Below are positions 2,962-30,729 of a DNA stretch of 33,835 bases, one piece after another. This stretch comes from Archaeoglobus sp. JdFR-37. GTDB lineage: Archaea > Halobacteriota > Archaeoglobi > Archaeoglobales > Archaeoglobaceae. The stretch spans positions 1 through 33,835 of the forward strand of contig MTMY01000017.1 of assembly GCA_002010215.1 (NCBI GenBank), read 5' to 3'. Both the position numbers and the translations under genes were made by a program. Every line of letters starts with the position of its first letter. Within the stretch, counting starts at the first letter, position 1. The notes beneath the pieces are model-generated. The model did not search any database. It was not told the DNA's origin and saw only the letters and a program-made list of their open reading frames with translations.

Positions 2962-3155
2962 ATCACTCCTTGCTTCGCGAGGAGTCTTGCAAGCAACTGG
3001 GAGGGGAAAAAATAGTTTGTATCTCCGATCTACATCTCGGTGAGTTGAGGATGATGAAAACAACCTCCAAATATTTTTCCCAGATATGCTCCACTCACTC
3101 CAAAAACTCCAAAGATTCGGGCGAAATAGGAAAAGTGAATCAGAACTCTGTGTAA
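2958..3155 (+). pseudogene. Truncated metallophosphoesterase remnant
   Basis: KIVCISDLHLG is calcineurin-like phosphoesterase motif I (DxH); no later motifs, and the ORF runs into the convergent kaiC gene. Confidence 0.5.
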
Positions 3156-3883
3156 ACCTCTTCTCTTGAGTGCACTACGATGCCTTCTTCTGTAATCTCG
3201 AAGGGGTGTATTTTCTTGCTGTGATTGCTGCCTCTCATCTTGAAGATTTCTAGGCTCCTTACTCTTACGTTTTCACTTCTTGTGAAATACAGAACAATTG
3301 TACCTTCAGTAACGAAATTCTCAACACCGAACCTGCTGATCTTGTCTCCACTTAAATCCTGAATTTCACAGGTAAGCAGAGATGTCAGGCCGAGGATCTC
3401 CATGGTGGTGGCTATTTTGAGCAGCTCAACTCTGAATTTCGCCGGATCCTGTATTGCAAATCCAATTGCTGTTGTGGAGTCAAGAACGGCTCTCCTGGCA
3501 CCGATCTCATCCTGAATTGTTATCACTTGGTCAAGTAAAGATCTAGTGTCAAAGGGGCGTACATCAATATAGCGCTCATCTGATGGTAAACCAATCTTCG
3601 TAGAGGTTGCATCAACGATTGCCAGCATGTTCTCATCTTCAAACTTCTCAAGATCCCAGCCAAAAACATAGAAGTGCTCTCTGAGATGCTGAGGCCTCTC
3701 CTCAGTGGCAATGAAAATACCTGGCTCGTTGAACATCTTTATTCCGTTGACAATGAACTGCATGGCAAAAATTGTCTTACCAGAACCTGAAGTTCCCGAG
3801 ACAAGGTAGCTCCTGTCTCTTATCAAACCACCCTCACAAAGCTCATCAAAGCCTGGAATACCAGTGGGCACCCTTTCAAGCAT
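3140..3883 (-). CDS. KaiC/RAD55-family single-domain ATPase
   Basis: RVPTGIPGFD, Walker A GTSGSGKT, Walker B AVLDS, RSLEIFKMRGSNH. Confidence 0.92.
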   Translation of the reverse strand: MLERVPTGIPGFDELCEGGLIRDRSYLVSGTSGSGKTIFAMQFIVNGIKMFNEPGIFIATEERPQHLREHFYVFGWDLEKFEDENMLAIVDATSTKIGLPSDERYIDVRPFDTRSLLDQVITIQDEIGARRAVLDSTTAIGFAIQDPAKFRVELLKIATTMEILGLTSLLTCEIQDLSGDKISRFGVENFVTEGTIVLYFTRSENVRVRSLEIFKMRGSNHSKKIHPFEITEEGIVVHSREEVYTEF

Positions 3884-6714: not shown

Positions 6715-6789
6715 GTCTTGAATTTCACTTGAAGAACTTAAGATTTGCCAAGGTCAAAATATTTATTTACAGACATCTTAATATTAAAT

Positions 6790-7641
6790 ATGGCTGAAAG
6801 GTATTATGAGCTTTCTGAGCTTGAGGCTAAAGCCCCCAAGCTTTTTGGAATTCCCACAGGAACAAAGCTTGATGAGATGTTCTACAAAATTGAGCAGGAA
6901 GGAGATGAATATGTCAAAAAGCCCTTGGGCGGAATACCACATCTTGCTGTCATGAATGTAACAGGAGTTCCTGATAGTGGCAAGAGTGTTCTTGCTGAGC
7001 AGTTTGCTGTAACCCAAGCCAATGCAGGATACAAGGTGCTGTTTGTTACAGTTGAGAGTCCGGCTAATTTCCTTTATACTGCCCTCAAGCAGAAAAGCGT
7101 CGCTCTGGGTGCAGATTTCTCGAAGGTTGAGAAGAACATAGTGGTGATAGATGCCAGTGAGAGTGATGAGCTGAGGGAGAACCCAAAAGCTTTGCTGGAC
7201 ACCATGGCCTATGCAATCAGGGAGAAGAAGGTGACTAATGTGATAATTGACAGCATCACTGGTCTCTACGAACACAAGGAAGTGATGGCTAGGCAGATAG
7301 TCAGACAGTTCTTTAATTTCCTGAAGAAGTGGAAGCAGACTGCAATTCTTGTCTCCCAGAAAAGGTCAGCTCAGGCTAGTGAAAGCGCTGAAGCTGCCGG
7401 TGGTCTGGCAGTCGCCCATATAGTTGATGGAACCATTGTGATGGATAAGAAGCTCATAGAAACCAGATGGGACGTCAGTCTCTACGGCCTCCCTCTTGGA
7501 AGTGTTCTGAGAACCATAAGGATTGATGGCTGCCGTCTTACAGCCCACGACTCCCGCTCATGGGTTTTTGAGATAACTGAGATGGGGACTGTTGAGATAC
7601 TCGCACCCCTTTCGGATTTCATCAAAAAGAAGGCGAGGTGA
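6790..7641 (+). CDS. KaiC domain protein (thermophile AF_0795-type)
   Basis: LFGIPTGT.LD, Walker A GVPDSGKS, VIIDS, AEAAGGLAVAHIVDG, RIDGCRL; start reset to ATG 6790. Confidence 0.9.
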   Translation: MAERYYELSELEAKAPKLFGIPTGTKLDEMFYKIEQEGDEYVKKPLGGIPHLAVMNVTGVPDSGKSVLAEQFAVTQANAGYKVLFVTVESPANFLYTALKQKSVALGADFSKVEKNIVVIDASESDELRENPKALLDTMAYAIREKKVTNVIIDSITGLYEHKEVMARQIVRQFFNFLKKWKQTAILVSQKRSAQASESAEAAGGLAVAHIVDGTIVMDKKLIETRWDVSLYGLPLGSVLRTIRIDGCRLTAHDSRSWVFEITEMGTVEILAPLSDFIKKKAR

Positions 7642-8347: not shown

Positions 8348-9304
8348 TTATACATTTATCCTTTCCTTTTGGGCCTTCATTAGCTCCAGCGTCCTTCTTA
8401 TCCTCTCAGCATCTCTTCTTCTTGCAATCTCATCAAGTTTCTGCTTCCAGACACTCATTTCTACAGTTCCCGCCATGCACTCATCAATGAAGTCTCTGTA
8501 GAATCTCACAATTTCGTAGATCAGCCCTACGCTGTACTCCCTCCCCTGAATCTTGAGGCAGTCAACAACATCAAGCATGGGGGGTATCTCTTCAAGCATC
8601 AGGAACATGTCGTTGGGCAGGTTGAAATCTTTGGCATAGCACCCTGTGTTCGTCCCACCACCATGGAGCCCCCACTTCATCAAGCAGGGGCGGAAGCATA
8701 CGCCGCCTCTATTGGGGCTACCCACATAATAGCTCTTGCCGTCAAGTTCTTCGTATCTCAAAGCCTTATAGCTGCTCATCCAGCACTTGCCGAGGTAAGT
8801 GAAGTCTGTGTTTGCGTGTATCAGCACCTCAACGCCTACTCCTGCCTTATTCTTTATTTCGGCAATTTCCTCAAGGCTGAGCTTGCAGTCGGCAACGATC
8901 ATTCTGGCACCAGCGTCGCGATAAAGCTTTGCTTCCTGATAGTTTATTATGTTGCAACCAATGCTCGCCACAATTTTCATGTCTGGATATCTGTCTCTAA
9001 CGATTCTCATCAAACCAATGTCATTCAGGATGATGGCATCAACTTCAGCGGAGTGGAGGAAATCCAGCTTTTCTTCAAACATGCTTATCTCGCCGCTCCT
9101 CGGCATGGCGTTGATGGCTGCCCTGAGCATTCCATCGTAGTCGTGGGCTATCTCGGCTGCTCTCCTTATTGTGTTATCATCCAGCTCGTATTTGGAAGAC
9201 CTCCTGCTCCAGCCCTTCACGCCAACATAAACGCTGTTTGCCCCAGCCTGAAACACCCTCTCCACCATTTCCAAGCTGCCCCCAGGGCCGAGAAGTTCAA
9301 CCAT
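8348..9304 (-). CDS. Peptidase U32 family Fe-S protein (UbiU-like)
   Basis: ELLGPGG...GANSVYVG, DAIILNDIGL, EVLIHA, GKC..SSY, NRGGVCFRPC, LKIQGR. Confidence 0.88.
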   Translation of the reverse strand: MVELLGPGGSLEMVERVFQAGANSVYVGVKGWSRRSSKYELDDNTIRRAAEIAHDYDGMLRAAINAMPRSGEISMFEEKLDFLHSAEVDAIILNDIGLMRIVRDRYPDMKIVASIGCNIINYQEAKLYRDAGARMIVADCKLSLEEIAEIKNKAGVGVEVLIHANTDFTYLGKCWMSSYKALRYEELDGKSYYVGSPNRGGVCFRPCLMKWGLHGGGTNTGCYAKDFNLPNDMFLMLEEIPPMLDVVDCLKIQGREYSVGLIYEIVRFYRDFIDECMAGTVEMSVWKQKLDEIARRRDAERIRRTLELMKAQKERINV

Positions 9305-10224
9305 CAGAGCACCCCCTTTGTTTCTTCAGCTTTTCCGGCCTTTCCAATATAATCCTGACCGGCTTTATTGAAGTAAAATCCGTTGCAGATTCCATTTTTC
9401 GCCATTTCCTTAAGCCTTCCGAAGTCCTCGGTTGAATACCCTTCGTTGATCCTCCTCCTGTAAATTTCCCCAACTACATCTCTGTAACCTATTCTCTCCG
9501 AAATAGCCTCAATTCGCATGGCATCAACGAAGTCCAGCTTTTCTATATGCTCGTACATGCAAACATCCTTTCCGCTAAGCGTTGCACTTCCGAAAGGCTT
9601 CAGAACCAGATCGTCGCTCCTGAACCAGAACTCCTCTTTGCAGATGTATGGGCAATCTTTCCCGGTCTTATCTGCGAAGCTCTTCAAAAAGCAGTCGTGA
9701 GAGATGCCCAGCGGTATTTTTCCGTGCACCACCACTTCAACTTCCAGCCCAACATCCTTTATCTTGCGAATATCTTCTATTGGGAGCTCGTAGGCTGGCA
9801 TAACTCTCCCAACACCCATGCTGTAAAGAAGCTCGGCAGTGGCAGAAGTGTAAATGTTAGTCAGCCCGCCGGTATGAACTCTCACATCGGGATACTCTTT
9901 TGTGATATGCCTTATGACTCCGTAATTGGTTGATTCAACAGCATCCACTTCCAGCTCCACAGCTTTATCAATAAGGCTGAAAACGTGCTTCAAATCCTTA
10001 TTTCTGGGAGCAGCAAAGGTTGAGACATATACTTTTTTCTTCATAGCTCGAAGCATCTCCACCGCTGCTCCCAGATCATCGTGGTTTGAGATTAAATTTC
10101 CCTCATACTCCCAGCAGTAAGGCATGCCCAGATAAACCGCATCATAGTGTTTCAGGCTGCACTCAGACATGCTCTCGAGGGTTGGAACATTTGTTACGAG
10201 CTCTGGATTTACCTCATGAGTCAC
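9304..10224 (-). CDS. Peptidase U32 family Fe-S protein (UbiV-like)
   Basis: DAVYLGMPYC, EVVVHGKIPLGISHDCF, CPYIC, GKDVC; probable GTG start at 10224, just after the upstream stop. Confidence 0.85.
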   Translation of the reverse strand: MTHEVNPELVTNVPTLESMSECSLKHYDAVYLGMPYCWEYEGNLISNHDDLGAAVEMLRAMKKKVYVSTFAAPRNKDLKHVFSLIDKAVELEVDAVESTNYGVIRHITKEYPDVRVHTGGLTNIYTSATAELLYSMGVGRVMPAYELPIEDIRKIKDVGLEVEVVVHGKIPLGISHDCFLKSFADKTGKDCPYICKEEFWFRSDDLVLKPFGSATLSGKDVCMYEHIEKLDFVDAMRIEAISERIGYRDVVGEIYRRRINEGYSTEDFGRLKEMAKNGICNGFYFNKAGQDYIGKAGKAEETKGVL

Positions 10225-10225
10225 C

Positions 10226-10885
10226 TCAATCCCCTCCACTTTTAATCTGTCTACCTTCATACTTCACAATATCAGCTCCATCTATCCTCAACCAGGATTT
10301 TTGAGGTGGAAAGCTGGTTTCAAAAACCTTCTCATCACCCATGAAAACTTCCCACTTTCTGCAACACTTTTTTGTACACAGACCATCTTTCTTTGTGCTT
10401 ATACCATCAAAATATCCGGTTAGCATGCATCTGCCTTTGTAGAACATCTCCATCAACGCAAATCTGAAAAGCTCTAGTTTGTACGCTTTTTTCCCGGTTT
10501 TATCAGTTTTTGCCTTCGCAAAGTCTTCATTCAGCTCTGGTGGGATAATGCATATGTCACAACCAATCTCGGCTAGAAACTCTAAATCCAGTCTGTTTGT
10601 CGGGCAGATGCCCACGCTTGAAGTTATAGAAAGGTCGTGTTTATCCTTAAGTTTCCAGATGGTACCGGGATCGTTCAAAATTAGGCCTTCAATTCCTTTT
10701 AATTTATTAACAGCTTCCTCAATCTCTTTAGGACTTTTAATCCTGTTAAATGCCACATAAACCCGCTTCTGCTTTGCAAGCTCATTTATCTCTTCAGCAG
10801 TGAGAGCATACCGATCAGAGTATCGACTGAAACCTTTAAGACCGACATACAAGGCTTCTCCATCTCCAGGCCTGAGTTCTAGCAT
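10226..10885 (-). CDS. Short peptidase U32 family protein
   Basis: ALYVGLKGFSR, GLILNDPG, YKGRCML, GLCTKKCCRKW, VKYEGR; truncated barrel relative to typical U32. Confidence 0.78.
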   Translation of the reverse strand: MLELRPGDGEALYVGLKGFSRYSDRYALTAEEINELAKQKRVYVAFNRIKSPKEIEEAVNKLKGIEGLILNDPGTIWKLKDKHDLSITSSVGICPTNRLDLEFLAEIGCDICIIPPELNEDFAKAKTDKTGKKAYKLELFRFALMEMFYKGRCMLTGYFDGISTKKDGLCTKKCCRKWEVFMGDEKVFETSFPPQKSWLRIDGADIVKYEGRQIKSGGD

Positions 10886-16625: not shown

Positions 16626-17177
16626 CTATTTCTGGATTTTAATTTTCTGAGCCTGCACATCTTCAGCAATAACCTCCACCGCCTCTAATTTTACCGCCTT
16701 AATTTTTCTGCAACGTATTTTCTCGGCTTTGATACTTGACGTTTCAGAAATCAGGTTTTCTGCCTCAATCTCTTTGGCTATTATGGCCTTCCTAGCATAA
16801 ACGTTATTCGCCATGATTTTGTCCGCTTCAATGAACCAGCCTGCTTCAACCCTCTGCCCAGAGACCAGATCAGATCTTATATACCCTTCAGCCTCTATCA
16901 AATTCGCCCTAATATAGCTTCTGGCAGCTATATGCCTTGAGGCCACTATTTTTTCTGCAACAATGAATGAATCTGACGTCAAACTCACACATCTCAAAGT
17001 TCCGCCAGACTTTACAAAGCCCCTCACCTTGCACGGTCTGATGAATTTGATATCGCCATCGAAGTGTATGCTGTCCTCAACCACCTTAGCTTCAACAACC
17101 AATGTGCCGGTTTTGTCTATGTAGATTCTGCCAGCGTGGGTTCCAGCATGGGTTCTGTCAAAGCTTTCAGAGTCCAT
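16626..17177 (-). CDS. Beta-solenoid (bactofilin-like) repeat protein
   Basis: More than 20 short I/V-x-A-x-x repeats (IVAEK IVASRH IAARSY IRANL IEAEGY ... IKAEK IRCRK IKAVK LEAVE VIAED VQAQK). Confidence 0.65.
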   Translation of the reverse strand: MDSESFDRTHAGTHAGRIYIDKTGTLVVEAKVVEDSIHFDGDIKFIRPCKVRGFVKSGGTLRCVSLTSDSFIVAEKIVASRHIAARSYIRANLIEAEGYIRSDLVSGQRVEAGWFIEADKIMANNVYARKAIIAKEIEAENLISETSSIKAEKIRCRKIKAVKLEAVEVIAEDVQAQKIKIQK

Positions 17178-17266
17178 CAAAAAGTATTGGATTTAAAATT
17201 TAAAAGGGTTCAGTACAAATCGAATCACATCGCAACCCGTTTAAACTCTGGCATCAGGTTAATGGC

Positions 17267-18010: not shown

Positions 18011-18153
18011 GTTATATTCTCTAAATTCCAAAAAAGATACGTGTCTCTAGAAGAACTGGAGATTTTGAAAGAATCGGCGTCTTCTCACCCTTTGAAATCC
18101 ATCTGGCGGATGAAAAAGAGTTCAGGTGGTACAGGAGGTTTGCTAAAAAATGA
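18011..18153 (+). pseudogene. C-terminal remnant of a minimal nucleotidyltransferase (MNT)
   Basis: IGVFSPFEIHLADEKEFRWYRRFAKK resembles the C-terminus of archaeal MNT proteins; no start and no GS/DxD motif. Confidence 0.45.
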
Positions 18154-18180
18154 TTGAAATCAGGTAATTCCTTTTTTGCC

Positions 18181-18873
18181 CTATTTTGCAGCAACCACAA
18201 CATCTATCTTCATCTTGGGCTTGACGTAATAACCCTTTTCCGGGCTCTGTCCAATCACTACTCCTTCTGCTGTAAGGCTTTTCTGCTTTGTAACGCTCCC
18301 CAGTCCCAGACCTGCGTCTTTAAGGATTTTTCTTGCATCTTCCAGCGTCAGACCTACTAAAGCCGGAACCTCAATCAGGGTGGGGCGGAAAGAGATTACT
18401 GCTGGTTTAATTGAAAACTTCACCCTGTCCACCGCAGCACTCTCCACTTTGTCGAAAGGCGAGATTATTTTAAAGAACACATTTCCCTCCTCATCTTTAT
18501 CGATATGTGTGGCCATTTCAACCTCTATGCCACTCACTACATACCTCGGCTCAGCACCAACCTCTGAGATAGCCAAACCAAGTTTTTCAACGATCTCCTG
18601 AGGTCTGATAATCCTTAAGGACTCAAGAGATTCGGGTGTTACCACAGGCTTCTTTTCAATCACCTTTGCAAGCTGTTCTTTCTCAGAGCTGACTTTTTCC
18701 ACTTCTTTCTTGAGTGCTTCATTCTCCTTTCGCAGTTTGTTCACTTCTAAGCTGAGACTTCTGACAGTTTGCTCAAGAGCAGGAACCTTAACCTTCAGCT
18801 CTTTCAGTTCCTTAATTTCATCTTCAATGGGCTTTTCCGTCTTATCGGGAAGCTTTCTAACTCTTTTCGCCAT
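18181..18873 (-). CDS. Coiled-coil + DUF2589-like + PASTA domain protein
   Basis: Heptad coiled coil (LKELKVKV...LAKV); middle helix-beta-beta module; C-terminal PASTA VPALVGLTLEDARKILKDAGL...GVVIGQSP..G; start reset to ATG 18873. Confidence 0.8.
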   Translation of the reverse strand: MAKRVRKLPDKTEKPIEDEIKELKELKVKVPALEQTVRSLSLEVNKLRKENEALKKEVEKVSSEKEQLAKVIEKKPVVTPESLESLRIIRPQEIVEKLGLAISEVGAEPRYVVSGIEVEMATHIDKDEEGNVFFKIISPFDKVESAAVDRVKFSIKPAVISFRPTLIEVPALVGLTLEDARKILKDAGLGLGSVTKQKSLTAEGVVIGQSPEKGYYVKPKMKIDVVVAAK

Positions 18874-18874
18874 A

Positions 18875-19255
18875 TCAATCCACTTTCCTGCCTGGTGGAA
18901 CTGAAACAATTTTCACCTTCAAAACACTTGTACCTTCCACCTGATAGTCGTACCTGTTTTTGTACGTAGCGTTGATGGGTGCTGCTACCATGACCTTTTT
19001 GAAAACATTCGCTGCCACCTGCTGAAAATTCACACCTAAGGCAAGCTTCAGTTCAAGCTCGATTTCAGGCATGTAGTACCACGGTGCCTGATAGTCGTAT
19101 TTTGAGAGTACCGGATCGTTTTCTGCAGCAATTTGGAGTTCAACGGACGCTCTGTCCAGAGCCTTCTGAGTTTCTGCAATTGCCTCTCCCAGCGACGAAA
19201 GAATTCTATCTACAGGTTCTATGAGGACTTCTTCTACTATATCAAGCTCTCTCAT
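18875..19255 (-). CDS. Hypothetical protein, DUF2589-like (short paralogue)
   Basis: LGEAIAETQKALD helix; PWYYMPEIELELKL; NATYKNRYDYQVEGTSVLKVKIVSVPP matches the upstream paralogue. Confidence 0.72.
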   Translation of the reverse strand: MRELDIVEEVLIEPVDRILSSLGEAIAETQKALDRASVELQIAAENDPVLSKYDYQAPWYYMPEIELELKLALGVNFQQVAANVFKKVMVAAPINATYKNRYDYQVEGTSVLKVKIVSVPPGRKVD

Positions 19256-19267
19256 GTCTTCTCAGCC

Positions 19268-19873
19268 TTATCCAGGTGGTGATGGCTCTTCAACTGTTAT
19301 TCTTACTGGAGTAACCCCTTCCGGAGGTGGAACCGGCTTTATAGTTACACGAAGTAAACTTGCACCCTCTGCCTTGTAGCCGTATTTCTGAGAGTACTTC
19401 GCATTCACGCTTGAAACTCTCAGCGAGGTCTTCTTTGCACTGGCCTCTATGGATGCTTTACCCCACAGCCAGCTTGCACTTGCCTTCGCCTTAACTCCAG
19501 CTTCCTTGCTCACTCTGCTTGTAACATTTGTCTCTCTTTCGTAAGATCTTTCAGAAGTCATGGTGATGGATATTTTCACCTCCACCAGCCCTTCCGTCAC
19601 ATTGTAGAATGTGGGAGAAATCCCGTATACAAGCAATGGCATCTCAACATCGTTGAAAACCGGCTCAGCTTTCTTGAGATTCCCCTCTTCATCTCTCGTC
19701 TCTTTTATTGCCACTATCACGCTTTCTGCCGGTAACGTCGTCTCTGCAAGGGCCTGTGCGACGCTTATAGACTCCATATCCATAGCCGTCTGACCTTGGG
19801 CTATGGCAAGCATCAGTTCCTTAACCATCTCTGGAAAAGGAACGTCCAGAAGTTCTTCACCAATCCTTGGCAT
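19268..19873 (-). CDS. Hypothetical protein, DUF2589-like with Ser/Ala/Lys-rich amphipathic beta-hairpin
   Basis: LLDVPFPEMV...AIAQGQTAMD; PTFYNVTEGLVEVKISI; hairpin AGVKAKASASWLWGKASIEASA; NAKYSQKYGYKAEGASLLRVTIKPVPP. Confidence 0.75.
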   Translation of the reverse strand: MPRIGEELLDVPFPEMVKELMLAIAQGQTAMDMESISVAQALAETTLPAESVIVAIKETRDEEGNLKKAEPVFNDVEMPLLVYGISPTFYNVTEGLVEVKISITMTSERSYERETNVTSRVSKEAGVKAKASASWLWGKASIEASAKKTSLRVSSVNAKYSQKYGYKAEGASLLRVTIKPVPPPEGVTPVRITVEEPSPPG

Positions 19874-20065
19874 CTAAAACACCAATTTATTAGCTCTACT
19901 TATACTATATATAACTTCCGAAACTATAAATTCGTTATTAAGAAAATATTATAAATTTTCGAGCTTGGCTATAGCACTAGACAATAGCTCTGGATTTGCA
20001 ACTCATTTCCAATCCAGTTTTTTAGAGAATTATTCAGAATCTAGAGAAAAATAAGAAAATAAAAA

Positions 20066-23033: not shown

Positions 23034-24221
23034 ATGAAAGTGAAGGTGATTGTGGAACTTATTGTGATTTTCGCTGTCTTAGCAATTCCTGCTGAGGTTT
23101 ATGCTGCAGGTTTTGGTCTTGCACCGTCATTTATTGATCTTAAAGACCTGACAAGGGGACAGAGTGTGGAAAGGAGTGTGAAAATATATAACAATCAGAA
23201 TCAGCCTCTGGAGCTGTATCCAGATACAGGGGAGTATAGTGATTGGGTTACAGTCCTGAATCCTGACGGAGGTGAGATTAAATCGATAAATGTTCCTCCA
23301 AACGGCTCAGCCACAGTTATTCTGAAGATAACTGTTCCGGCGACCGCTGCCAATGGTGAATATGAGATACCTGTTTACTTTGGCACCAAACCGCCAGAGG
23401 AGGGGACAGGAATTGGCGTTCAGGCCCCTGTGAAGGTGTTTTTAATAGTAACGGGTCAGCAGAGGATTAGCGTGAAGGTCATGTCTTATGAGGTGAGCGA
23501 TACAGAAGTTGGAGTTCCTGCGAGGTTAAGCATTACCGTTATGAATGACGGAAACGTGATTGCTCAGCCGGAGTTTAAGATCAAGATCTCGAAAGACGGA
23601 AGCGAGATATTTGAAAATAAAACTAAGGTAAAGATTCCGCCTCGGGAGATAGAGGAGATTAAGCTATCTTGGGACACCTCAAATGCTCAGAAGGGAAATT
23701 ATTCAGTAATGCTGACCGTAGATCTTGATGGTGAAACTGTTTATTCCCATGAAGTAGCGTTTAAGGTTTTTGAAAAAGGAACCCTGACAGCATCACTCTA
23801 TCTGGTTAATGCAAGCCTCAACAAGTACCTGGAAGTGGGTAAAACAGGAAAATTTGAAGTTTTCGTCAAAAATACGGGATACATCGACTATGAAGCCAAA
23901 TTGAGGGTTGAAGTGTATAGAGACGATGAGTTCCTCAGCGTGGTTCAGAGCGATTCAGTGTGGCTGGAAAAAGGAAATATGGCTCCGCTTACAGCGTACC
24001 TATTATTCGATGAAAAAGGAGAGTATACTCTCAAACCAGTGGTAGTTTATGCAGGAAAGTTGGCCATACTCAACGAGGCTTTTGTGAAAGTTGGAGTAGG
24101 AACGAAAACTCAAGAAAATTCAGAGGAGAAAGTTGCTGTAAAAGCACGTGGGTTCGAAGCATTTGCGCTGCTAACAGTAGTGATAGTCTTAATGACAATT
24201 CTATGGTTAAAAAGACGTTAA
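23034..24221 (+). CDS. Secreted multi-Ig-domain surface protein with PGF-CTERM-like anchor
   Basis: Signal peptide; three beta-sandwich domains (G.SVERSVKIYN, VMNDGNV, VKNTG); C-terminal ARGF + TM helix + KRR. Confidence 0.8.
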   Translation: MKVKVIVELIVIFAVLAIPAEVYAAGFGLAPSFIDLKDLTRGQSVERSVKIYNNQNQPLELYPDTGEYSDWVTVLNPDGGEIKSINVPPNGSATVILKITVPATAANGEYEIPVYFGTKPPEEGTGIGVQAPVKVFLIVTGQQRISVKVMSYEVSDTEVGVPARLSITVMNDGNVIAQPEFKIKISKDGSEIFENKTKVKIPPREIEEIKLSWDTSNAQKGNYSVMLTVDLDGETVYSHEVAFKVFEKGTLTASLYLVNASLNKYLEVGKTGKFEVFVKNTGYIDYEAKLRVEVYRDDEFLSVVQSDSVWLEKGNMAPLTAYLLFDEKGEYTLKPVVVYAGKLAILNEAFVKVGVGTKTQENSEEKVAVKARGFEAFALLTVVIVLMTILWLKRR

Positions 24222-24302
24222 TTCAATCTTTTTTACCATTTTTTTTCCTGTTAATCACTTCTTAATCCTTCTACATTCTGGTTAACTCTGTTTTATTCTG
24301 AA

Positions 24303-24319
24303 ATTAACTAAGTAGTTTG
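24303..24319. promoter_or_regulatory. 17-bp motif ATTAACTAAGTAGTTTG, copy 1
   Basis: Exact match to 26090-26106; contains the inverted repeat AACTA-N2-TAGTT; ~39 nt upstream of the probable start. Confidence 0.7.
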
Positions 24320-24357
24320 GAGCTAATGGACTGACAGCCGAAAAGGAGGTGAGTTAT

Positions 24358-25473
24358 GTGAGAAAAGAAATACTAGTGTTGGTGGTAATGGCATTATTGG
24401 CGTCACCAGCGTTTGGATTGACTGCAGCAAGCCAAGATTTAACGGAGCAGATAAGAGTTGATGTTGTTGCACATGTGGATCCGGCAGGAAACCCACCGTG
24501 GATAAAAGCGAAGTGGGAAATGTGGATGGAGCCTACCTATGAAGAACTTGTAGATGCTGACCCATACACAATTGGAACCCAAGGGGATATCGTACCGGGT
24601 GGAAACACGTACTTCTATTCCTTCGTGATAGTTAGTGACCCCAATGGTATTGAGGATCTTGATTATGGTAATGTGTATGTAGATGTATATCATCCAACAT
24701 GCGGCTGGGGAGATGGCAGCTTCAAGTATCAGGTACATGCTTATGAAATAACCCCACCACAGGATGAATATGGAGTACCAATGATGGATGTGCCCATATT
24801 CTATGGCTATACTGTTCGGGACCTTCTTGATATGGGTGTAGCTGCTGGTTACTTTACAGCTGAGGAGGCAGCTGAGCTCTGGGAGGAAATCCACCAGAAT
24901 GATGCGAGAATCTATGTGGCCGAACTTGAAATAAGCTACCACCAGCCTTATGGGTGGTATAGAGTTGAAGCTTGGGCCACCGACAACGATGGTGGACAGT
25001 CTGACAAGTTTATCAACTACTTCGAAGTCAGACCAATGCTTGCATGGGAGACAGACTTCAATACAGTTGAGTTCGCTAATGTGAAAGTTGGAACAAGGGC
25101 ACAGGTTAGCGGTGACTACGATCTGAACACTCCGTTTAGGCCAACCGTCAGAAACTTGGGCAATACACCAATAATCCTGTCCGCATATGCATCGGATGCC
25201 ACGAGCAACACAACTCCGCCAAAGCACTTTACGGACATCTTTGACATGAGATTCCTGAATGAGGATGTAATGCTACCGTCATTCGAGTGGTTCATGTTTA
25301 GCAACATGTTGCCGCCATGCAACACAACGAAGATTGACTTTAGCCTGCATCTACCACAGGGAGCACCCGCGTCAGACTACTCAGGTTACATACTGCTGAA
25401 GTTTGAGGGCTACGTGCTACCGTGCGATGTGCCAGAGTCAATAAGCGACCCAGTGCAACCATGGGCACCATAA
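24358..25473 (+). CDS. Secreted beta-rich surface/filament subunit candidate
   Basis: GGAGGTGA RBS, GTG start (24349 alternative); signal peptide ending AFG; acidic beta-rich body; no membrane anchor; T-rich terminator follows. Confidence 0.75.
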   Translation: MRKEILVLVVMALLASPAFGLTAASQDLTEQIRVDVVAHVDPAGNPPWIKAKWEMWMEPTYEELVDADPYTIGTQGDIVPGGNTYFYSFVIVSDPNGIEDLDYGNVYVDVYHPTCGWGDGSFKYQVHAYEITPPQDEYGVPMMDVPIFYGYTVRDLLDMGVAAGYFTAEEAAELWEEIHQNDARIYVAELEISYHQPYGWYRVEAWATDNDGGQSDKFINYFEVRPMLAWETDFNTVEFANVKVGTRAQVSGDYDLNTPFRPTVRNLGNTPIILSAYASDATSNTTPPKHFTDIFDMRFLNEDVMLPSFEWFMFSNMLPPCNTTKIDFSLHLPQGAPASDYSGYILLKFEGYVLPCDVPESISDPVQPWAP

Positions 25474-25488
25474 AGCTATAAGGACAAT

Positions 25489-25511
25489 ATTTATTTTTTA
25501 ATTTTTATTTT
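25489..25511 (+). terminator. Oligo-T archaeal terminator
   Basis: TTTATTTTTTAATTTTTATTTT run just after stop 25473. Confidence 0.5.
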
Positions 25512-25604
25512 GAGAATTAGGTTAAGGGGTTTTACTGAATATATATTAGGAACTATAAAATTTAATTAAATACTAGTATTGATCATTATTTTTTGGTGTA
25601 GGTT

Positions 25605-26048
25605 ATGGATGGGATTGCTAGTTTGATATCTAATAAGCGCAGGAGGCTTTTGCTGAGGTATCTTGTGAACAACAATGGCAAAGGCAGCCTGGAAGAAGTC
25701 ATTTCTTATATCTGTGACAATGAAGGCGATCCTGAGTGTAAAAACCGGAAGAGTGTTTACATAAGCCTGAAGCAAACTCATATTCCGAAGCTGGAAAAGG
25801 CACGGCTTGTGATTTATGATAAAAGGTCGAACACCCTTTATCTGGAGGAGAGCTACAAGAAAGATGTGAAGATGTATGTTGAGTTCGTAGAAGGGGTTGA
25901 TATAAGCTGGAGTAAATACTATATTGGGCTCGCTGGTGTGGCGATGGCAGGAAGCGTTTATTTGATGGACTTCTGGGCACTTACGGTATCGTTTCTCTTC
26001 CTTGTGAGTGCTAGTCTGAATATAGCCAAACAAAGGAGAGTAATCTGA
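25605..26048 (+). CDS. Membrane-anchored winged-helix regulator (DUF7344-like)
   Basis: LISNKRRRLLLRYL, RKSVYISLKQTHIPKLEKARLVIYD, then two short TM segments. Confidence 0.8.
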   Translation: MDGIASLISNKRRRLLLRYLVNNNGKGSLEEVISYICDNEGDPECKNRKSVYISLKQTHIPKLEKARLVIYDKRSNTLYLEESYKKDVKMYVEFVEGVDISWSKYYIGLAGVAMAGSVYLMDFWALTVSFLFLVSASLNIAKQRRVI

Positions 26049-26089
26049 TTAATGGGTCGTTAAAAGTTCAGAAAAACGGTTTGGCGGAT

Positions 26090-26106
26090 ATTAACTAAGT
26101 AGTTTG
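26090..26106. promoter_or_regulatory. 17-bp motif ATTAACTAAGTAGTTTG, copy 2
   Basis: Exact match to 24303-24319; ~50 nt upstream of the first DUF1102 gene. Confidence 0.7.
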
Positions 26107-26155
26107 TGAGGATATATTCTACAAAAATGGAGGAGTAATAGAGGGGGTATGAAAA

Positions 26156-26665
26156 ATGATGGGGAGGCTTTTTGGGCTCGTATTGCTTGTAACCGCCTTA
26201 ATGCTGGCCATGAAAATTGGCGCAGATTTTGCCAGCTATGAGGCTGAAAGAAGCGTGCACATAGCAGTGGTGGCAGACGATCAGGAGCTCATTGACTTGG
26301 ACCCTCAGCAACCATATGCTTACTTAGGGAATGATGGTAAGCTCTACATTGATATAAGCGAAAACAATCCAAATTATGATGAAGGTCTTGGTAAGGGGAT
26401 AAGTCCTGATTCTGTGTATGCTTTCAATTGCATGTTCAATGTTTCAAACCATTTGTGGAATGGAACCACAATAGAGGTAAGGATAACCTCCAGCCATAGC
26501 TTGGTTAAACTTTACACCGATAATCTTGACTCAGCTGATAATACTGTCACGTTCCAGGTGCCACCTGAAAGCAGCGTCTGCGTGGGCATGGAGTTCAGCG
26601 GACAGGGTCTCGAACCGGATGAGGTCATTAATGGTACATTGACAATACATGCAGAACCTTCTTAA
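26156..26665 (+). CDS. DUF1102 family secreted pilin-like protein 1
   Basis: Signal peptide, then GADFASYEAERSVHIAVVADDQELIDLDPQQPYAY; G.G.SPDSVYAF..MF.VSN.LW; CVGM. Confidence 0.85.
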   Translation: MMGRLFGLVLLVTALMLAMKIGADFASYEAERSVHIAVVADDQELIDLDPQQPYAYLGNDGKLYIDISENNPNYDEGLGKGISPDSVYAFNCMFNVSNHLWNGTTIEVRITSSHSLVKLYTDNLDSADNTVTFQVPPESSVCVGMEFSGQGLEPDEVINGTLTIHAEPS

Positions 26666-26678
26666 TGGGGTGTTATAG

Positions 26679-27212
26679 ATGAACAAAATAGCCCTGCTGG
26701 TAATTTTTTCAGTGGCTCTGGCTTTGGTGGCTGGAGTTGGTGCAAACTTCAGGATGTTCAACGCGGAAAGAGAGTTCAGCGTGGCAGTGGTAGCGGATGA
26801 TCAGGAGCTTATAGACCTCACTCCGAACCAGCCGTACGCCTTTATAGATGATGATGGTAAAATGATCGTCAGATTCGACACGCTCAACAGAAATTATCCC
26901 GGCTATGGTAACGGGATTAGTCCGGATACAATCTATGTTTTTGATAAGGTATTCTGTGTCTCTAATGGGCTGTGGGATAATGAAACAATTGCTGTGGACC
27001 TAAGAGTTTCACCAAGTTTGGAAGGTATAATTAAACTTTACTCGCCAAGCAGTACTGAAAACAGAAGTCCGGATGAGGCTGGAAGTACTTTAATTACCGT
27101 AATAAAGCCAGGCGAGGATGCATGCATCGGTTTTGTGATAAACACTACAGGCTATACTAAAGACAACTCCTATGAAGGAACGATAACGATACAAGGGTAC
27201 AGGTTCACTTAA
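26679..27212 (+). CDS. DUF1102 family secreted pilin-like protein 2
   Basis: GANFRMFNAEREFSVAVVADDQELIDLTPNQPYAF; YPGYGNGISPDTIYVF. Confidence 0.85.
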   Translation: MNKIALLVIFSVALALVAGVGANFRMFNAEREFSVAVVADDQELIDLTPNQPYAFIDDDGKMIVRFDTLNRNYPGYGNGISPDTIYVFDKVFCVSNGLWDNETIAVDLRVSPSLEGIIKLYSPSSTENRSPDEAGSTLITVIKPGEDACIGFVINTTGYTKDNSYEGTITIQGYRFT

Positions 27213-27226
27213 AGCTGCTTAGGGGC

Positions 27227-27251
27227 TTTTTATAATTTTTTAATTTAATTT
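27227..27251 (+). terminator. Internal oligo-T terminator/attenuator after DUF1102 gene 2
   Basis: TTTTTATAATTTTTTAATTTAATTT between genes 2 and 3. Confidence 0.45.
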
Positions 27252-27264
27252 CAGGTGAACAAAA

Positions 27265-27774
27265 ATGAAAACGACAGTGATGACATTAGTTACTCTTACA
27301 GCTATGATAGGTATAATTTTGTTCTCGGTATCAGGGGGTCTCATTAATTATGATTCAGAGAGGACATTCAGGGTGATGGTGGTCACTGAGGATCAGGAGC
27401 TCATAAAGCTCATTCCGGCACAGCCATATGCCTACATAGGACGTGATGGAAAGCTGTATGTGGAAATCACTGAGTCAAATCCAAATTTTCCAGGATATGG
27501 GTCTGGGTTAAGTCCTGACACTGTTTATGCTTTTGATTGTGTTTTCAAGGTGAAAAATTCTCTGTGGCAGAATCAGACCATTTTCTTCGCGATTAACTCA
27601 TCATCTCCCAGCATTCTTGTTTATAGCCCGGAGGACACCTTTGTTAATTCACCTGAAACTGCTACCATGAATATGGTTTTCCCGCTTCAGTGGAAAGAAG
27701 AAATCTGTATTGGTATGGTTTTCAACCTCAGTGACACTACGGAGGTGGGAGTGAAAATAAATGCTACAATCTAG
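27265..27774 (+). CDS. DUF1102 family secreted pilin-like protein 3 (possibly clipped by a premature TAG)
   Basis: NYDSERTFRVMVVTEDQELIKLIPAQPYAY; FPGYGSGLSPDTVYAF; ends NATI-TAG and the frame continues FLIGI-TGA. Confidence 0.82.
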   Translation: MKTTVMTLVTLTAMIGIILFSVSGGLINYDSERTFRVMVVTEDQELIKLIPAQPYAYIGRDGKLYVEITESNPNFPGYGSGLSPDTVYAFDCVFKVKNSLWQNQTIFFAINSSSPSILVYSPEDTFVNSPETATMNMVFPLQWKEEICIGMVFNLSDTTEVGVKINATI

Positions 27775-27812
27775 TTCTTAATTGGCATTTGAGTTAGTAA
27801 TGGGGTGCATGT

Positions 27813-28844
27813 ATGCGAAAAGCAGTAAAAAAGATTCTTAGTTTAATAACAATAATTTTGACCGTATCGTCTATAGCTGGAGCTTTGCTGGAGAGACCTG
27901 TGTTGATATCATATGTTACGTCTGGAAGTATGGTTCCTACGATTCATGAAAATGACTTGATTTTCATAAATCCCTTGGCTATAAATTATGGAGTCGGAGA
28001 TATAATCGTCTTCGAATCAGATGGAAAATGGATCTGTCATCGGATTTTTGCCATCACTGATAAAGGATTTTTGACAAAGGGAGATAACAACATTGCTATA
28101 GACCAACTCGAGGGTCAATCGGCAGTTAAACCGGATAAAATAGCCGGGAAAGTCGTGACTTTCATGGATAAGCCTGTAGTCATTCCTGGAGTCGGTGATA
28201 AACTCGGGCTGATCTCAGCCTACGCATGGGAACACAGATTTATAATGCTCGTTCTGCTGGCAATAGCTGGCTTATTTCAGATTGTAGGTGGTGAGAAGGC
28301 TACCAAGAAAAAAACCAGAAGGTTTCTGAAAATTCGGTTCTCTCAGGTTTTTGTTGCAGCCTCTTTTTCAGTAATTCTACTACTGACAGTCGTATCAGCC
28401 TTGATGATCGGAGGGCAGGATATCCAATATGGTACAACAGTAGCTGGGAATGTGCGACCAGAGTGGGTTCTGCCAGGATCTACCTTTGAGAGGCCTATCC
28501 TTCTTGAGAACCGGGGAGTGTATCCATATCTTTATGTTGTTAAAGACGATGGTGGTAGAGCATCCGTTAAAAAATGGTTTTTGCTTGGCCCAGGAGAAAG
28601 TAAGGAGGTGGATGTGATAATAAGAGCACCTAAAGAAACTAGCATATATTCTGAGCACATCATCATCGCCAGGTACTTACCTGTTGCACCACTGGAATTT
28701 TTGGCAACTCTCGCTTTATATAACCACTTTCTGCCAATTCTGGTTATTGACTTTGAATTTGCCATGTTCTTTGTTCTCCTGTACATTCTCACCGGCAGCA
28801 ATGAAGTTTATAAGATTCGGTTACCATGGAGGCTCAGATCATGA
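27813..28844 (+). CDS. Signal peptidase I, SipW/Sec11-type (S26B), with C-terminal TM + Ig-like extension
   Basis: VTSGSMVPTI (catalytic Ser), GDIIVF, ICHRI (His), TKGDNN..D. Confidence 0.92.
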   Translation: MRKAVKKILSLITIILTVSSIAGALLERPVLISYVTSGSMVPTIHENDLIFINPLAINYGVGDIIVFESDGKWICHRIFAITDKGFLTKGDNNIAIDQLEGQSAVKPDKIAGKVVTFMDKPVVIPGVGDKLGLISAYAWEHRFIMLVLLAIAGLFQIVGGEKATKKKTRRFLKIRFSQVFVAASFSVILLLTVVSALMIGGQDIQYGTTVAGNVRPEWVLPGSTFERPILLENRGVYPYLYVVKDDGGRASVKKWFLLGPGESKEVDVIIRAPKETSIYSEHIIIARYLPVAPLEFLATLALYNHFLPILVIDFEFAMFFVLLYILTGSNEVYKIRLPWRLRS

Positions 28845-29650
28845 AGAGGGCAATGTTGCTTATCATTGCCGTCTTAACAGTAATGGCTGTTGATGCAAGC
28901 ATCAGAAGTATAAACGAGTCCAGAGCATTTACTGTAGTCATTACGGAACCGGAAAATTCTCTCATATCCTATGAGTGTGGTATTGAGGCTAAACTCAGGC
29001 CTGGTTACTGGAGCGCTGTAAAAGTGGCTCAGCTGGAAAATAGAATGCAGGAGGAGGTGATAATAAACTATTCTCAACACTTATGGATTGAAGGGGGAGA
29101 AGGTATCAGATTTATTGGGATAGATGCTCCTTTATCGCTTCAGCCACTTGAAAGCCAAGAGGTTATGGGCGGATTTATTGTGGATGAACATTCAACAAAT
29201 GGTAAGCTCTATTTTGTATTCTCAGCTACTTGGCCTAATGGAAGTGCGGTTATAAAAACAGGTGTGTGCCCCTTGGAAGTTGAGGTTAAACATAATTCAA
29301 TGTCGGTATGGGCTTTTCCTGAAGGACACCACAAGTGGGATGATGAAAGCCGGGGCGGTTACTTCTATTACGATGGAGGAAGCCTTATAGTGCCCATATA
29401 TTCGAACCGAGACACTCAGATAGGATGGCTTCAGATAATGGGTGGAGAGACTACCACTATCTGCTACAACCTCACTTCTAGTGGTTACAGGATCGATAAA
29501 ATCAACCTAATGGTAAAAGTGGACGAAATCCAAGAGAATAACCCTGATAATTACACCTATGTAGTGGAAAACGTTGACAGGGAATCCTTCTGCATAGATA
29601 TTGGCGAGTTCAGTGAAGGCTATATAGCAGCCCATGCTGTGGTTCGCTGA
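28841..29650 (+). CDS. Secreted two-domain protein, putative minor pilin/tip
   Basis: ATGA overlap with the peptidase; signal peptide, then SIRSINESRAFTVVITEPENSLI resembling the DUF1102 N-terminal strand; extra aromatic-rich C-terminal domain ending YIAAHAVV. Confidence 0.7.
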   Translation: MKRAMLLIIAVLTVMAVDASIRSINESRAFTVVITEPENSLISYECGIEAKLRPGYWSAVKVAQLENRMQEEVIINYSQHLWIEGGEGIRFIGIDAPLSLQPLESQEVMGGFIVDEHSTNGKLYFVFSATWPNGSAVIKTGVCPLEVEVKHNSMSVWAFPEGHHKWDDESRGGYFYYDGGSLIVPIYSNRDTQIGWLQIMGGETTTICYNLTSSGYRIDKINLMVKVDEIQENNPDNYTYVVENVDRESFCIDIGEFSEGYIAAHAVVR

Positions 29651-29709
29651 ACTCTGTTTCGGAAAATTGTTTATTCTGGATATTTATACTAAAATGTATA
29701 ATAAAATAT

Positions 29710-30729
29710 ATGGACCTCAGGGAGATAAAGGAGATGGAGCTCAGAACAGTACTGTCACTGGTTTCTCTTATTATATTGATCGCATCCATTATTGCGCTCT
29801 ATCGAATCTGGGATGTTCAGGATGAAGTCATTCAGAAGGTGGAGGTAGGAGAGTATAGAATTAGGAGCAAATTTACTCCTTCAGCTAAGATAGAGTCTCC
29901 AACTCTGATTTATGAGAGGAAAGAATTGATTAAGTATGGTAGAGATGAGTTTTTTCCCACTCTAATCAAGGACTTCTGGTTGGACTACGAGATTGAAATA
30001 GCTGGAAAGGGGATATTCATTGGAGACTACGAAATTAAAACATATCTTGAACCATCTTCTGCTAGAAATGCACCACACTGGAGTAAAGAGCTACCGTATT
30101 CAAAGAGGAAGGTTTTCTCAGAAAGTGGTGTGAGCGATAAAATCAGAATCGACTGGAAATACATATTAAACCTCTGGAATGATATTCAGAGGGAGATAGG
30201 GGTCGCATACACTAATCCTTCTATAAGAATAGTATCTGTGATAAAGCTCCGAGGAAATGCTGGAGATACCGGGGTGGAGCGAAACATCGTTCACGAGGCT
30301 AGAATATATTATGGGAAAACCATATCCTTTGAAAAACTCACTCTGGAGAAGTCGGAAAAGATTTTTAAGGATGTGAAGGTAATTAACAAGATTGGGGACG
30401 GATTTCCCAGTTTTAGTCCAAGTACTGCGAAATTTGGTCTCGGGTTGATTGTAGTAATATCTGGAACATCCTTTCTGTTGGTTTCTAGAAAAACGATTCT
30501 GGATGGCATTGTTGCCTTCTTAGAGGATAGAAGAGTGGGACGCTTTAAACGTAAATATGGCTCGCTGGTTGTGAGAATCAACAGCAGCCTCCCCCATACG
30601 AGAACTGTTAGGGTAGGTAGTCTCGATGACCTCGGCAAACTGGCGTTTGAACTCGAAAAGCCGATACTTGAAACAGACGAATTTTATGGAGTTCTCGAAG
30701 GGGATGTCTTGTATGCTGTGAAAAAATGA
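29710..30729 (+). CDS. DUF5305-like membrane protein
   Basis: N-terminal TM, extracellular beta domain, second TM, cytoplasmic tail FKRKYG...VRVGSLDDLGKLAFELEKPIL...GDVLY. Confidence 0.75.
   Translation: MDLREIKEMELRTVLSLVSLIILIASIIALYRIWDVQDEVIQKVEVGEYRIRSKFTPSAKIESPTLIYERKELIKYGRDEFFPTLIKDFWLDYEIEIAGKGIFIGDYEIKTYLEPSSARNAPHWSKELPYSKRKVFSESGVSDKIRIDWKYILNLWNDIQREIGVAYTNPSIRIVSVIKLRGNAGDTGVERNIVHEARIYYGKTISFEKLTLEKSEKIFKDVKVINKIGDGFPSFSPSTAKFGLGLIVVISGTSFLLVSRKTILDGIVAFLEDRRVGRFKRKYGSLVVRINSSLPHTRTVRVGSLDDLGKLAFELEKPILETDEFYGVLEGDVLYAVKK

Follow-up and report, generated by a model that had tools for sequence, protein, structure and literature searches.

The window analysed here is 33,835 nucleotides (nt) of DNA from Archaeoglobus sp. 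JdFR-37 (contig MTMY01000017.1 of assembly GCA_002010215.1), and it carries a cassette of three small, adjacent genes, here called g1, g2 and g3, which raises the question of what such a unit does in an archaeon when its third product ends in a PASTA domain. PASTA domains are classically extracellular peptidoglycan or β-lactam sensors, and the archaea in which the PASTA cassette occurs lack murein. An earlier note on this DNA took the locus to be a DUF2589-like operon encoding a candidate hetero-oligomeric pore or antibacterial apparatus. Comparison with related loci indicates that the cassette is real and well conserved, and is a diverged PASTA-bearing member of a DUF2589/Pepco-like superfamily; the preferred reading, at a probability of about 0.4, is that this horizontally mobile unit encodes a hetero-oligomeric ring or barrel of the cytoplasm in which g1 provides a stem and the PASTA subunit is a regulator, an assembly whose formation and membrane activity we infer.

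Profile comparison indicates that the paralogy of g1 and g2 extends from end to end and that they share one fold: a 59-member alignment of the g1 family matched a 48-member alignment of the g2 family with an hhalign probability of 99.7% and an expectation value (E) of 8.7e-27 over 124 columns (reversed-template control E 0.01), and BLASTP of the two window proteins gave E 2e-8 over the C-terminal 43 residues. Both proteins end in a conserved (I/L)xxVPPP segment. The g1/g2 alignment of the earlier note, whose quoted peptide strings are all found in the translations, reflects paralogy far beyond chance. g2 is the minimal paralogue, consisting of a helix and three strands with an IVSVPP end and no long hairpin; g1 has a DUF2589-like architecture in which an N-terminal helix is followed by a short hairpin and then by a very long β-hairpin. 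The hhalign comparison places g1-only insertions at residues ~44-79 (the short hairpin) and ~117-150, and so shows as an insertion the amphipathic Ser/Thr/Ala/Lys-rich stretch of ~50 amino acids (aa) that had been noticed in g1 only. In the AlphaFold2 (AF2) monomer model of g1, helix 13-44 is followed by strands 53-60/66-73 and by long paired strands at 89-113 and 158-181; residues 111-166 lie below a predicted local distance difference test (pLDDT) score of 50. Paired flanking strands with an unmodelled tip are as expected of a stem that would be ordered only in an oligomer.

The g1 family comprises 34 clusters in a word-indexed search, and the insertion averages S 14%, T 13.5% and K 10% over the 59 aligned members (S+T 27.6%). 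The consensus hairpin of the 39 main-group g1 homologues is KFGSKFSFKNKTKFSGSYKT-GGLASLLFGK-AKASVENTTTVAYSSTFNAKYSSKYSF; both strands switch between aromatic or apolar residues and Lys/Ser/Thr/Asn at alternate positions, and the tip, GGLxxLLFG, is hydrophobic and flanked by Gly. A period-2 statistic compared with shuffled sequences gave a modest mean z of 1.49 over the 59 members, with z >2 in 27%. The amphipathic character of the hairpin, on which the earlier note had staked its pore hypothesis, is kept in homologues, most of which display the alternation of aromatic and polar residues more clearly than the window copy.

The third product, g3, is composed of a coiled-coil helix, a central domain and a C-terminal PASTA domain. 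The last is well supported, with PF03793 matching residues 167-228 over profile positions 1-63 of 64 at 55.8 bits (gathering score 23.2; E 4.5e-15), as the earlier note had recognised, and the NCBIfam PknB_PASTA_kin region matching at E 4.3e-8; apart from PASTA, library scans of g3 gave only generic coiled-coil noise. The sequence match is as clear as the model is confident, which likens the domain to those of PBP2x/PknB-type proteins; unlike them, g3 has neither a transmembrane (TM) segment nor a secretion signal, and the domain that precedes its PASTA domain is g2/Pepco-like, not a kinase or transpeptidase.

The central domain had been described as a degenerate copy of the fold shared by g1 and g2. 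A direct comparison is not significant (BLASTP E 0.29; hhalign of g2 against the central domain E 0.016, with a best reversed control of 0.01) and was rejected as stand-alone evidence; an ESM Atlas search with this domain returned no usable match. The copy is nevertheless supported by three indirect lines: the central domain matches gene C of the DUF2589 operons described below, which itself matches g2; one related locus (L080) encodes a single protein in which a DUF4332/HhH domain precedes a g2-like domain (BLASTP E 5e-17 to window g2) that is fused to PASTA; and 64 of the top 150 g2-like representatives have a PASTA domain right behind the g2-like domain, at a median gap of 0 residues. The g3 central domain is therefore probably a diverged g2/Pepco-like domain. 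The remainder of the top 150 include 35 stand-alone proteins and 39 with another C-terminal extension. An exhaustive profile search places 1079 representative clusters (made at 50% identity) in the g2-like domain family at E<=1e-3, of which 593 reach E<=1e-10, and this large family lies outside Pfam. By these profile matches the family has as a hallmark a PASTA domain directly after the g2-like fold; the g3 PASTA domain occupies exactly that position. Homologues of g3 span 216-589 aa and contain 1-5 PASTA repeats, sometimes with a C-terminal HHH_5/DUF4332 domain. In some Methanosarcina, giant PASTA-repeat proteins are encoded just upstream of the cassette (L013:1408-5493 and L028:932-5509; 1362 and 1526 aa, with 12-14 PASTA domains).

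Relatives were sought by scanning one genome per species, which identified 201 genomes with a g1 relative; gene order was read from the best 80 loci. The order g1-g2-g3 is colinear in 63 of these 80, so the three genes form a conserved unit. In 13 loci only g1-g2 is seen and 4 are arranged otherwise; four of the g1-g2 loci (L034, L061, L069 and L076) leave <700 bases after g2, where a contig end may hide a third gene. Among the best 80, archaeal loci include many Methanosarcinales (Methanolobus, Methanosarcina, ANME-2 and Methanoperedenaceae), Bathyarchaeia and one Archaeoglobaceae metagenome-assembled genome (MAG), and bacterial loci include Aquificales, Elioraea and other Acetobacteraceae, and Syntrophales. 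The cassette is present in 3 of 61 sampled Archaeoglobales, a genome of the same genus being without it, and in 31 of 121 sampled Methanosarcinales. In a quick maximum-likelihood tree of g1 (IQ-TREE), archaeal and bacterial sequences interleave, with Methanocalculus joining Syntrophaceae at an SH-aLRT support of 100; the window g1 is on a long branch apart from the other Archaeoglobaceae sequence, and its placement in this quick tree is unsure. The patchy distribution and the interleaved tree together indicate that the cassette is an accessory, horizontally transferred module. The same cassette is found in many bacteria and archaea, and the occurrence of PASTA in this archaeon would thus reflect horizontal spread of the whole unit. 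Viral contigs scanned with the g1 and DUF2589 gene A profiles gave no confirmed relative.

The only elements conserved across the 80 loci are g1/g2, g3 and a fourth small gene of ~80 aa, which is found in 42 of the 63 colinear loci, upstream (before g1) in 8 and downstream (after g3) in 34. Its products (within L001-L068; for example L021:8210-8452 and L002:3180-3428) have the consensus ETxLIxL...GGxV...IIAxFD...GVxLVGGV and match no Pfam family. The β-α-β-β-α-β pattern recalls protease propeptide or ACT-like folds; a profile search of the PDB returned non-significant matches only, among which the subtilisin E propeptide (E 0.68) is the most suggestive. The fourth gene was found neither in the window nor in this genome, which is 94.5% complete. 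Distant variants from Chloroflexia, Acidobacteriota, Nevskia and Syntrophobacterales MAGs (L070-L079) combine two g1-like genes with a g2-like gene whose C-terminal domain is a different one, in the company of GT4 glycosyltransferases (one matching PF20706, GT4-conflict), GH5 cellulase-like proteins and an NAGPA-like protein, a setting that hints at glycan chemistry or conflict systems. In a Methanothrix MAG, a 231-aa open reading frame (ORF) just 3' of a g1-like gene (L077:6626-7318) weakly matches the ribosome-inactivating-protein family PF00161 (E 5.8e-5, 23.2 bits, cut-off 21).

The relation to DUF2589 holds at one level and fails at another. The Pfam model of that family, PF11655 (gathering score 23 bits), leaves g1 and g2 unmatched at E<=1 and matches nothing in the whole genome at that threshold; at E<=0.1 it finds 0 of 59 g1-family and 0 of 48 g2-family members. 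With true members from related genomes this model reaches 60-159 bits. True DUF2589 operons occur in 9 of 61 Archaeoglobales genomes, always as an A-B-C triplet (L084-L092, genomes G002-G043), and among the genomes searched they show no overlap with the three that carry the PASTA cassette. Gene A encodes ~190 aa (PF11655 E 4.5e-45) with an N-terminal helix and a Trp/Gly-tipped (WGWG) hairpin; gene B is a shorter DUF2589 paralogue, which appears shortened in L084, where only an 82-aa frame matched; gene C encodes ~145 aa without a Pfam match, a helix and strands of the type 'TFELSEIEVELNF ... SKVRFKLTSK'. In hhalign comparisons the g1 family matched gene A at E 2.3e-4 over 108 columns (reversed control 0.07), the g3 central domain matched gene C at E 2.8e-5 (reversed control 0.043), and g2 matched gene C at E 5e-4 and gene B at E 1.9e-3; none of 21 reversed-template controls fell below E 0.01. 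The hidden Markov model (HMM) of gene C gave 59 of 78 g2 and 48 of 87 g1 homologues a higher score than any reversed decoy, and in the three ESM Atlas clusters nearest g1, PF11655 is present in 46%, 31% and 89% of members. On the strength of these profile links, the gene C model and the ESM Atlas neighbours, the label 'DUF2589-like' in the earlier note is apt for the superfamily; formal Pfam membership fails.

The A-B-C layout of DUF2589 operons, such as A. fulgidus AF0414-AF0417, parallels g1-g2-g3, and both systems are cytoplasmic and patchily distributed. The gene A hairpin AKAGWGWGSVKLTASYG and the window g1 hairpin AKASASWLWGKASIEASA are both Trp/Gly-tipped and amphipathic. The two differ in that DUF2589 proteins end in a C-terminal helix with a DEMPEGxR motif, whereas g1 and g2 end in VPPP, and gene C is without the coiled coil and PASTA domain of g3. 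A full-text literature search on DUF2589 found no functional study, and one on PASTA domains in archaea and Methanosarcina returned nothing on the g2-like family.

A characterised point of reference is provided by Pepco, the name given to Trypco1 and Trypco2 in a preprint (10.1101/2025.11.14.688446) that describes a 117-aa Pepco forming 9-10-mer β-barrels that resist heat and sodium dodecyl sulfate and open a membrane pore; there the N-terminal amphipathic helix is essential, and the protein becomes toxic once an adjacent protease cuts off a Pro- and charge-rich C-terminal tail. Pepco and the cassette proteins are small and cytoplasmic and have no enzyme domain, and the order of elements in g1/g2 is that of Pepco: an amphipathic helix, a β-hairpin, a final strand and a Pro-rich C-terminal segment. 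The hydrophobic moment of the N-terminal helix (0.61 in g2, 0.44 in Trypco2) is too generic a feature to weigh. At the profile level, the sole match of PF19631 (Trypco2) in the whole genome falls in the g3 central domain at 13 bits and E 0.21, below its gathering score of 24.2 bits, and one of 48 g2 homologues is matched at E 0.031; an hhalign comparison of the g3 central domain with 13 aligned true Trypco2 proteins gave E 1.2e-4 over 55 columns (reversed control 0.59). This profile link, weak as it is, lends plausibility to a ring or β-barrel assembly, as Pepco is an experimentally shown β-barrel pore. Differences are also apparent. Pepco is a single homo-oligomer and the cassette encodes three different paralogues; g1 has an extra hairpin of ~50 residues relative to Pepco; and where Pepco has its cleavable tail, g3 and its fused relatives have PASTA or another C-terminal domain. 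Pepco also comes with a serine or cysteine protease encoded next to it, in most cases as a fusion with a sensor; no trypsin- or caspase-like protease or STAND sensor adjoins the cassette. The earlier note knew of no characterised system of this form; this holds for the three-subunit form, but Pepco is a characterised relative in kind. In the preferred reading, the cassette's three members, DUF2589 and, more distantly, Trypco2/Pepco belong to one superfamily of small 'amphipathic helix + β-hairpin' proteins.

Under the preferred reading, g1, g2 and g3 would pair strand to strand in the cytoplasm and so build a joint ring or β-barrel. The amphipathic Ser/Thr/aromatic hairpin of g1, with ~25 residues per strand, would form the barrel stem and insert into the cell's own membrane from the inside, and g2, as a stem-less paralogue, would complete or limit the ring. 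g3 may dock by its diverged copy of the shared domain, the coiled coil serving multimerisation, and its PASTA domain, at the position of the inhibitory tail of Pepco, could sense a ligand or gate the assembly, which would make g3 a regulator or an anchor. The cell would use the complex to permeabilise its own membrane in a controlled way, for suicide or defence or in a stress response. A more specific version, in which a protease-independent hetero-oligomeric Pepco relative is pre-assembled as a closed β-barrel that PASTA opens on a small-molecule or glycan signal, making it a ligand-gated pore for suicide or stress that has passed between archaea and bacteria, is considered unlikely as a whole.

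Several results weigh against a membrane-active barrel. A Foldseek search of the PDB with the g1 model gave no match at E<=0.001, and the best VIA-align score, Z 5.1 to the Francisella periplasmic protein FPM13 over 58 aligned residues, is within background. The window g1 hairpin is Ala-rich and only weakly alternating (z 1.14), with Ala/Val in place of most aromatics. The Trypco2 link of the cassette is weak: g1 and g2 profiles are non-significant against Trypco2 (hhalign E 0.17 and 0.097), and a Trypco2 HMM outscores decoys for no more than 7 of 61 g3, 7 of 78 g2 and 1 of 87 g1 homologues. No protease is conserved beside the cassette in the 80 loci, nor is one found beside the window copy, so the way in which Pepco is activated does not carry over. 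The window neighbours are housekeeping genes, and there is no clear defence-island signal, with PADLOC matches in 10 of 93 flanking proteins from 8 of 30 loci, a count that has no background rate and is not taken as support; the matches include mad3 (E 6e-100, L016) and Csa3 (L066), and several others are to generic ATPase, helicase or oxidoreductase models. Many family members have HhH/DUF4332 domains, which hint at nucleic-acid association rather than membranes. A predicted complex of g1 and g2 scored 0.08 (mark 0.32) and was counted neither for nor against binding.

Some of these results fit a soluble ring, filament or sheet, in which the coiled coil, the PASTA repeats and, in relatives, HhH/DUF4332 domains would tether the assembly to a further polymer, for example DNA or a glycan precursor, and the hairpin would be an inter-subunit element. 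Fusions of HhH/DUF4332 domains with g3 or g2-like proteins occur, the 1-5 PASTA repeats of g3 homologues and the 12-14 of the neighbouring Methanosarcina proteins have the look of a spacer or rod, TM segments are absent, synteny is conserved within Methanolobus and Methanosarcina as well as the window having its housekeeping neighbours, and weak fold matches include ring-building flagellar and baseplate proteins (Z<=4.3). Such a scaffold is unlikely, though it deserves serious consideration, given that the alternation, hydrophobic tip and S/T richness of the hairpin are typical of membrane-inserting stems, that Pepco, the closest characterised relative in kind, is membrane-active, and that a patchy, transfer-prone spread is more in keeping with an accessory module than with a core part of a cytoskeleton. 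It is distinctly improbable that the three genes, though co-transcribed, encode small proteins of the DUF2589 superfamily that do not assemble together and have separate regulatory or stress roles, for example as PASTA metabolite sensors, with g1 and g2 as unrelated partners. The only expression note found for DUF2589, up-regulation of AF0414-AF0417 on lactate in A. fulgidus (PMC3949148), would suit such proteins; the kept gene order, the tight spacing of 12 and 1 nt and the paralogous folds found across the three genes and the DUF2589 operon are instead typical of one complex, and the fusion of g2-like domain and PASTA shows that both work in one molecule.

The antibacterial apparatus proposed in the earlier note, read here as a secreted or surface system in which PASTA would target bacterial peptidoglycan and g1 would be an aerolysin-type pore in the victim's membrane, fares worst and is very improbable. 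The PASTA domain is present, and g1 resembles aerolysin-family toxins in having a Ser/Thr-rich amphipathic hairpin of alternating polarity, a potential transmembrane β-barrel stem; that part of the comparison stands. The structural part is not supported: Foldseek rows of the g1 model list aerolysin, lysenin and epsilon-toxin pores at E 4-7 with probability <=0.03 (the rows that could be cited in favour of a toxin have E 4-6 and probability 0.02-0.03), none is in the VIA-align top 50, and the likeness of fold is within noise. The cassette proteins are much smaller than these toxins and have no receptor-binding lectin-type domains. Hydropathy reveals no apparent signal peptide, in agreement with the earlier note, and no apparent TM helix in g1, g2, g3 or their families (highest 19-residue Kyte-Doolittle means 1.26, 0.89 and 1.45 for the three cassette proteins). 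This lack of export signals or a membrane anchor argues against antibacterial targeting, the conserved neighbourhood includes no secretion genes, fusion to HhH/DUF4332 domains implies that the proteins are cytoplasmic, and with the PASTA cassette in many bacteria as well as archaea, an archaeal PASTA domain needs no antibacterial explanation. Scans of Pfam, NCBIfam, PADLOC and PHROGs found no family for g1 or g2, no match better than E 0.068 came from a sequence-profile search of the PDB with the g1 family, and a BFVD search with the g1 model returned one unnamed viral protein, A0A516MP19, at E 4.6e-4 and a template-modelling score of 0.29-0.32.

If the cassette does encode a regulated β-barrel, the Pepco class of pore-formers would extend to heteromeric, protease-free forms and to archaea, PASTA would gain an intracellular role unconnected with peptidoglycan, and DUF2589 would acquire a working hypothesis. 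If it encodes a soluble scaffold instead, it would still be an unrecognised, widely transferred three-subunit complex.

The layout of the cassette in the window bears out the tight coupling of its genes on the minus strand: 12 nt separate the g1 stop from the g2 ATG and 1 nt separates the g2 TGA from the g3 ATG, which has a GTGGA motif directly 5' of it. The spacer upstream of g1 is likely the cassette promoter and ribosome-binding site, and the stretch downstream of g3 is likely the end of the transcription unit, both assigned by eye; flanked by this promoter-like spacer, by the oligo-T runs and by a convergent neighbour, the three genes look like one independent transcription unit.

Features of the g1-g2-g3 cassette and its borders, with positions counted along the window
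Feature	Position	Strand	Description
g1	19268-19873	minus	201-aa ORF
g1 Ser/Thr/Ala/Lys-rich amphipathic hairpin, residues ~108-160	19394..19552	minus	~50 residues; W-L-W-G tip; not present in g2
g2	18875-19255	minus	126-aa ORF
g3	18181-18873	minus	230 aa from likely ATG at 18873; frame also open from TTG 18909 (ORF 18181-18909)
g3 coiled-coil helix, residues 16-73	18655..18828	minus	AF2 pLDDT 94-98; only generic coiled-coil Pfam matches
g3 central domain, residues ~91-157	18403..18603	minus	Helix 91-104, strands 116-126, 132-135 and 149-155; AF2 pLDDT 58-75 (moderate)
g3 PASTA domain, residues 166-230	18184..18378	minus	PF03793; AF2 pLDDT 96-98
Upstream spacer of g1, after leuS stop	19874..20065	minus	192 nt, AT-rich; TATA-like runs; GGTG 7 nt 5' of g1 ATG
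Stretch downstream of g3	18011..18180	minus	Several oligo-T runs; convergent with HDAC-like gene (plus strand)

Beyond the cassette, a 184-aa ORF at 16626-17180 on the minus strand has a repetitive C-terminal half in which a pattern like A-x-K/R-I-x-A recurs at intervals of roughly 11 residues; it matches nothing in Pfam, NCBIfam or PADLOC and among the 80 related loci is found in the window only, and by eye it may be guessed to be a β-helix or bactofilin-like protein. A plus-strand cluster at 23034-30729 encodes predicted exported proteins, namely a CARDB-domain protein, three tandem DUF1102 paralogues, an S24-like (signal-peptidase-type) protein and a DUF5305 protein, and ends in two HTH_45 winged-helix genes; it may be a surface-filament or pilus-type locus. 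Three consecutive genes of the peptidase U32 family (E 4.9e-40, 2.5e-29 and 3.3e-12) are located at 8348-10885 on the minus strand, and KaiC-like ATPase genes at 3140-3883 (minus) and 6745-7641 (plus) flank an HhH-GPD glycosylase gene and a DNA-alkylation-repair gene.

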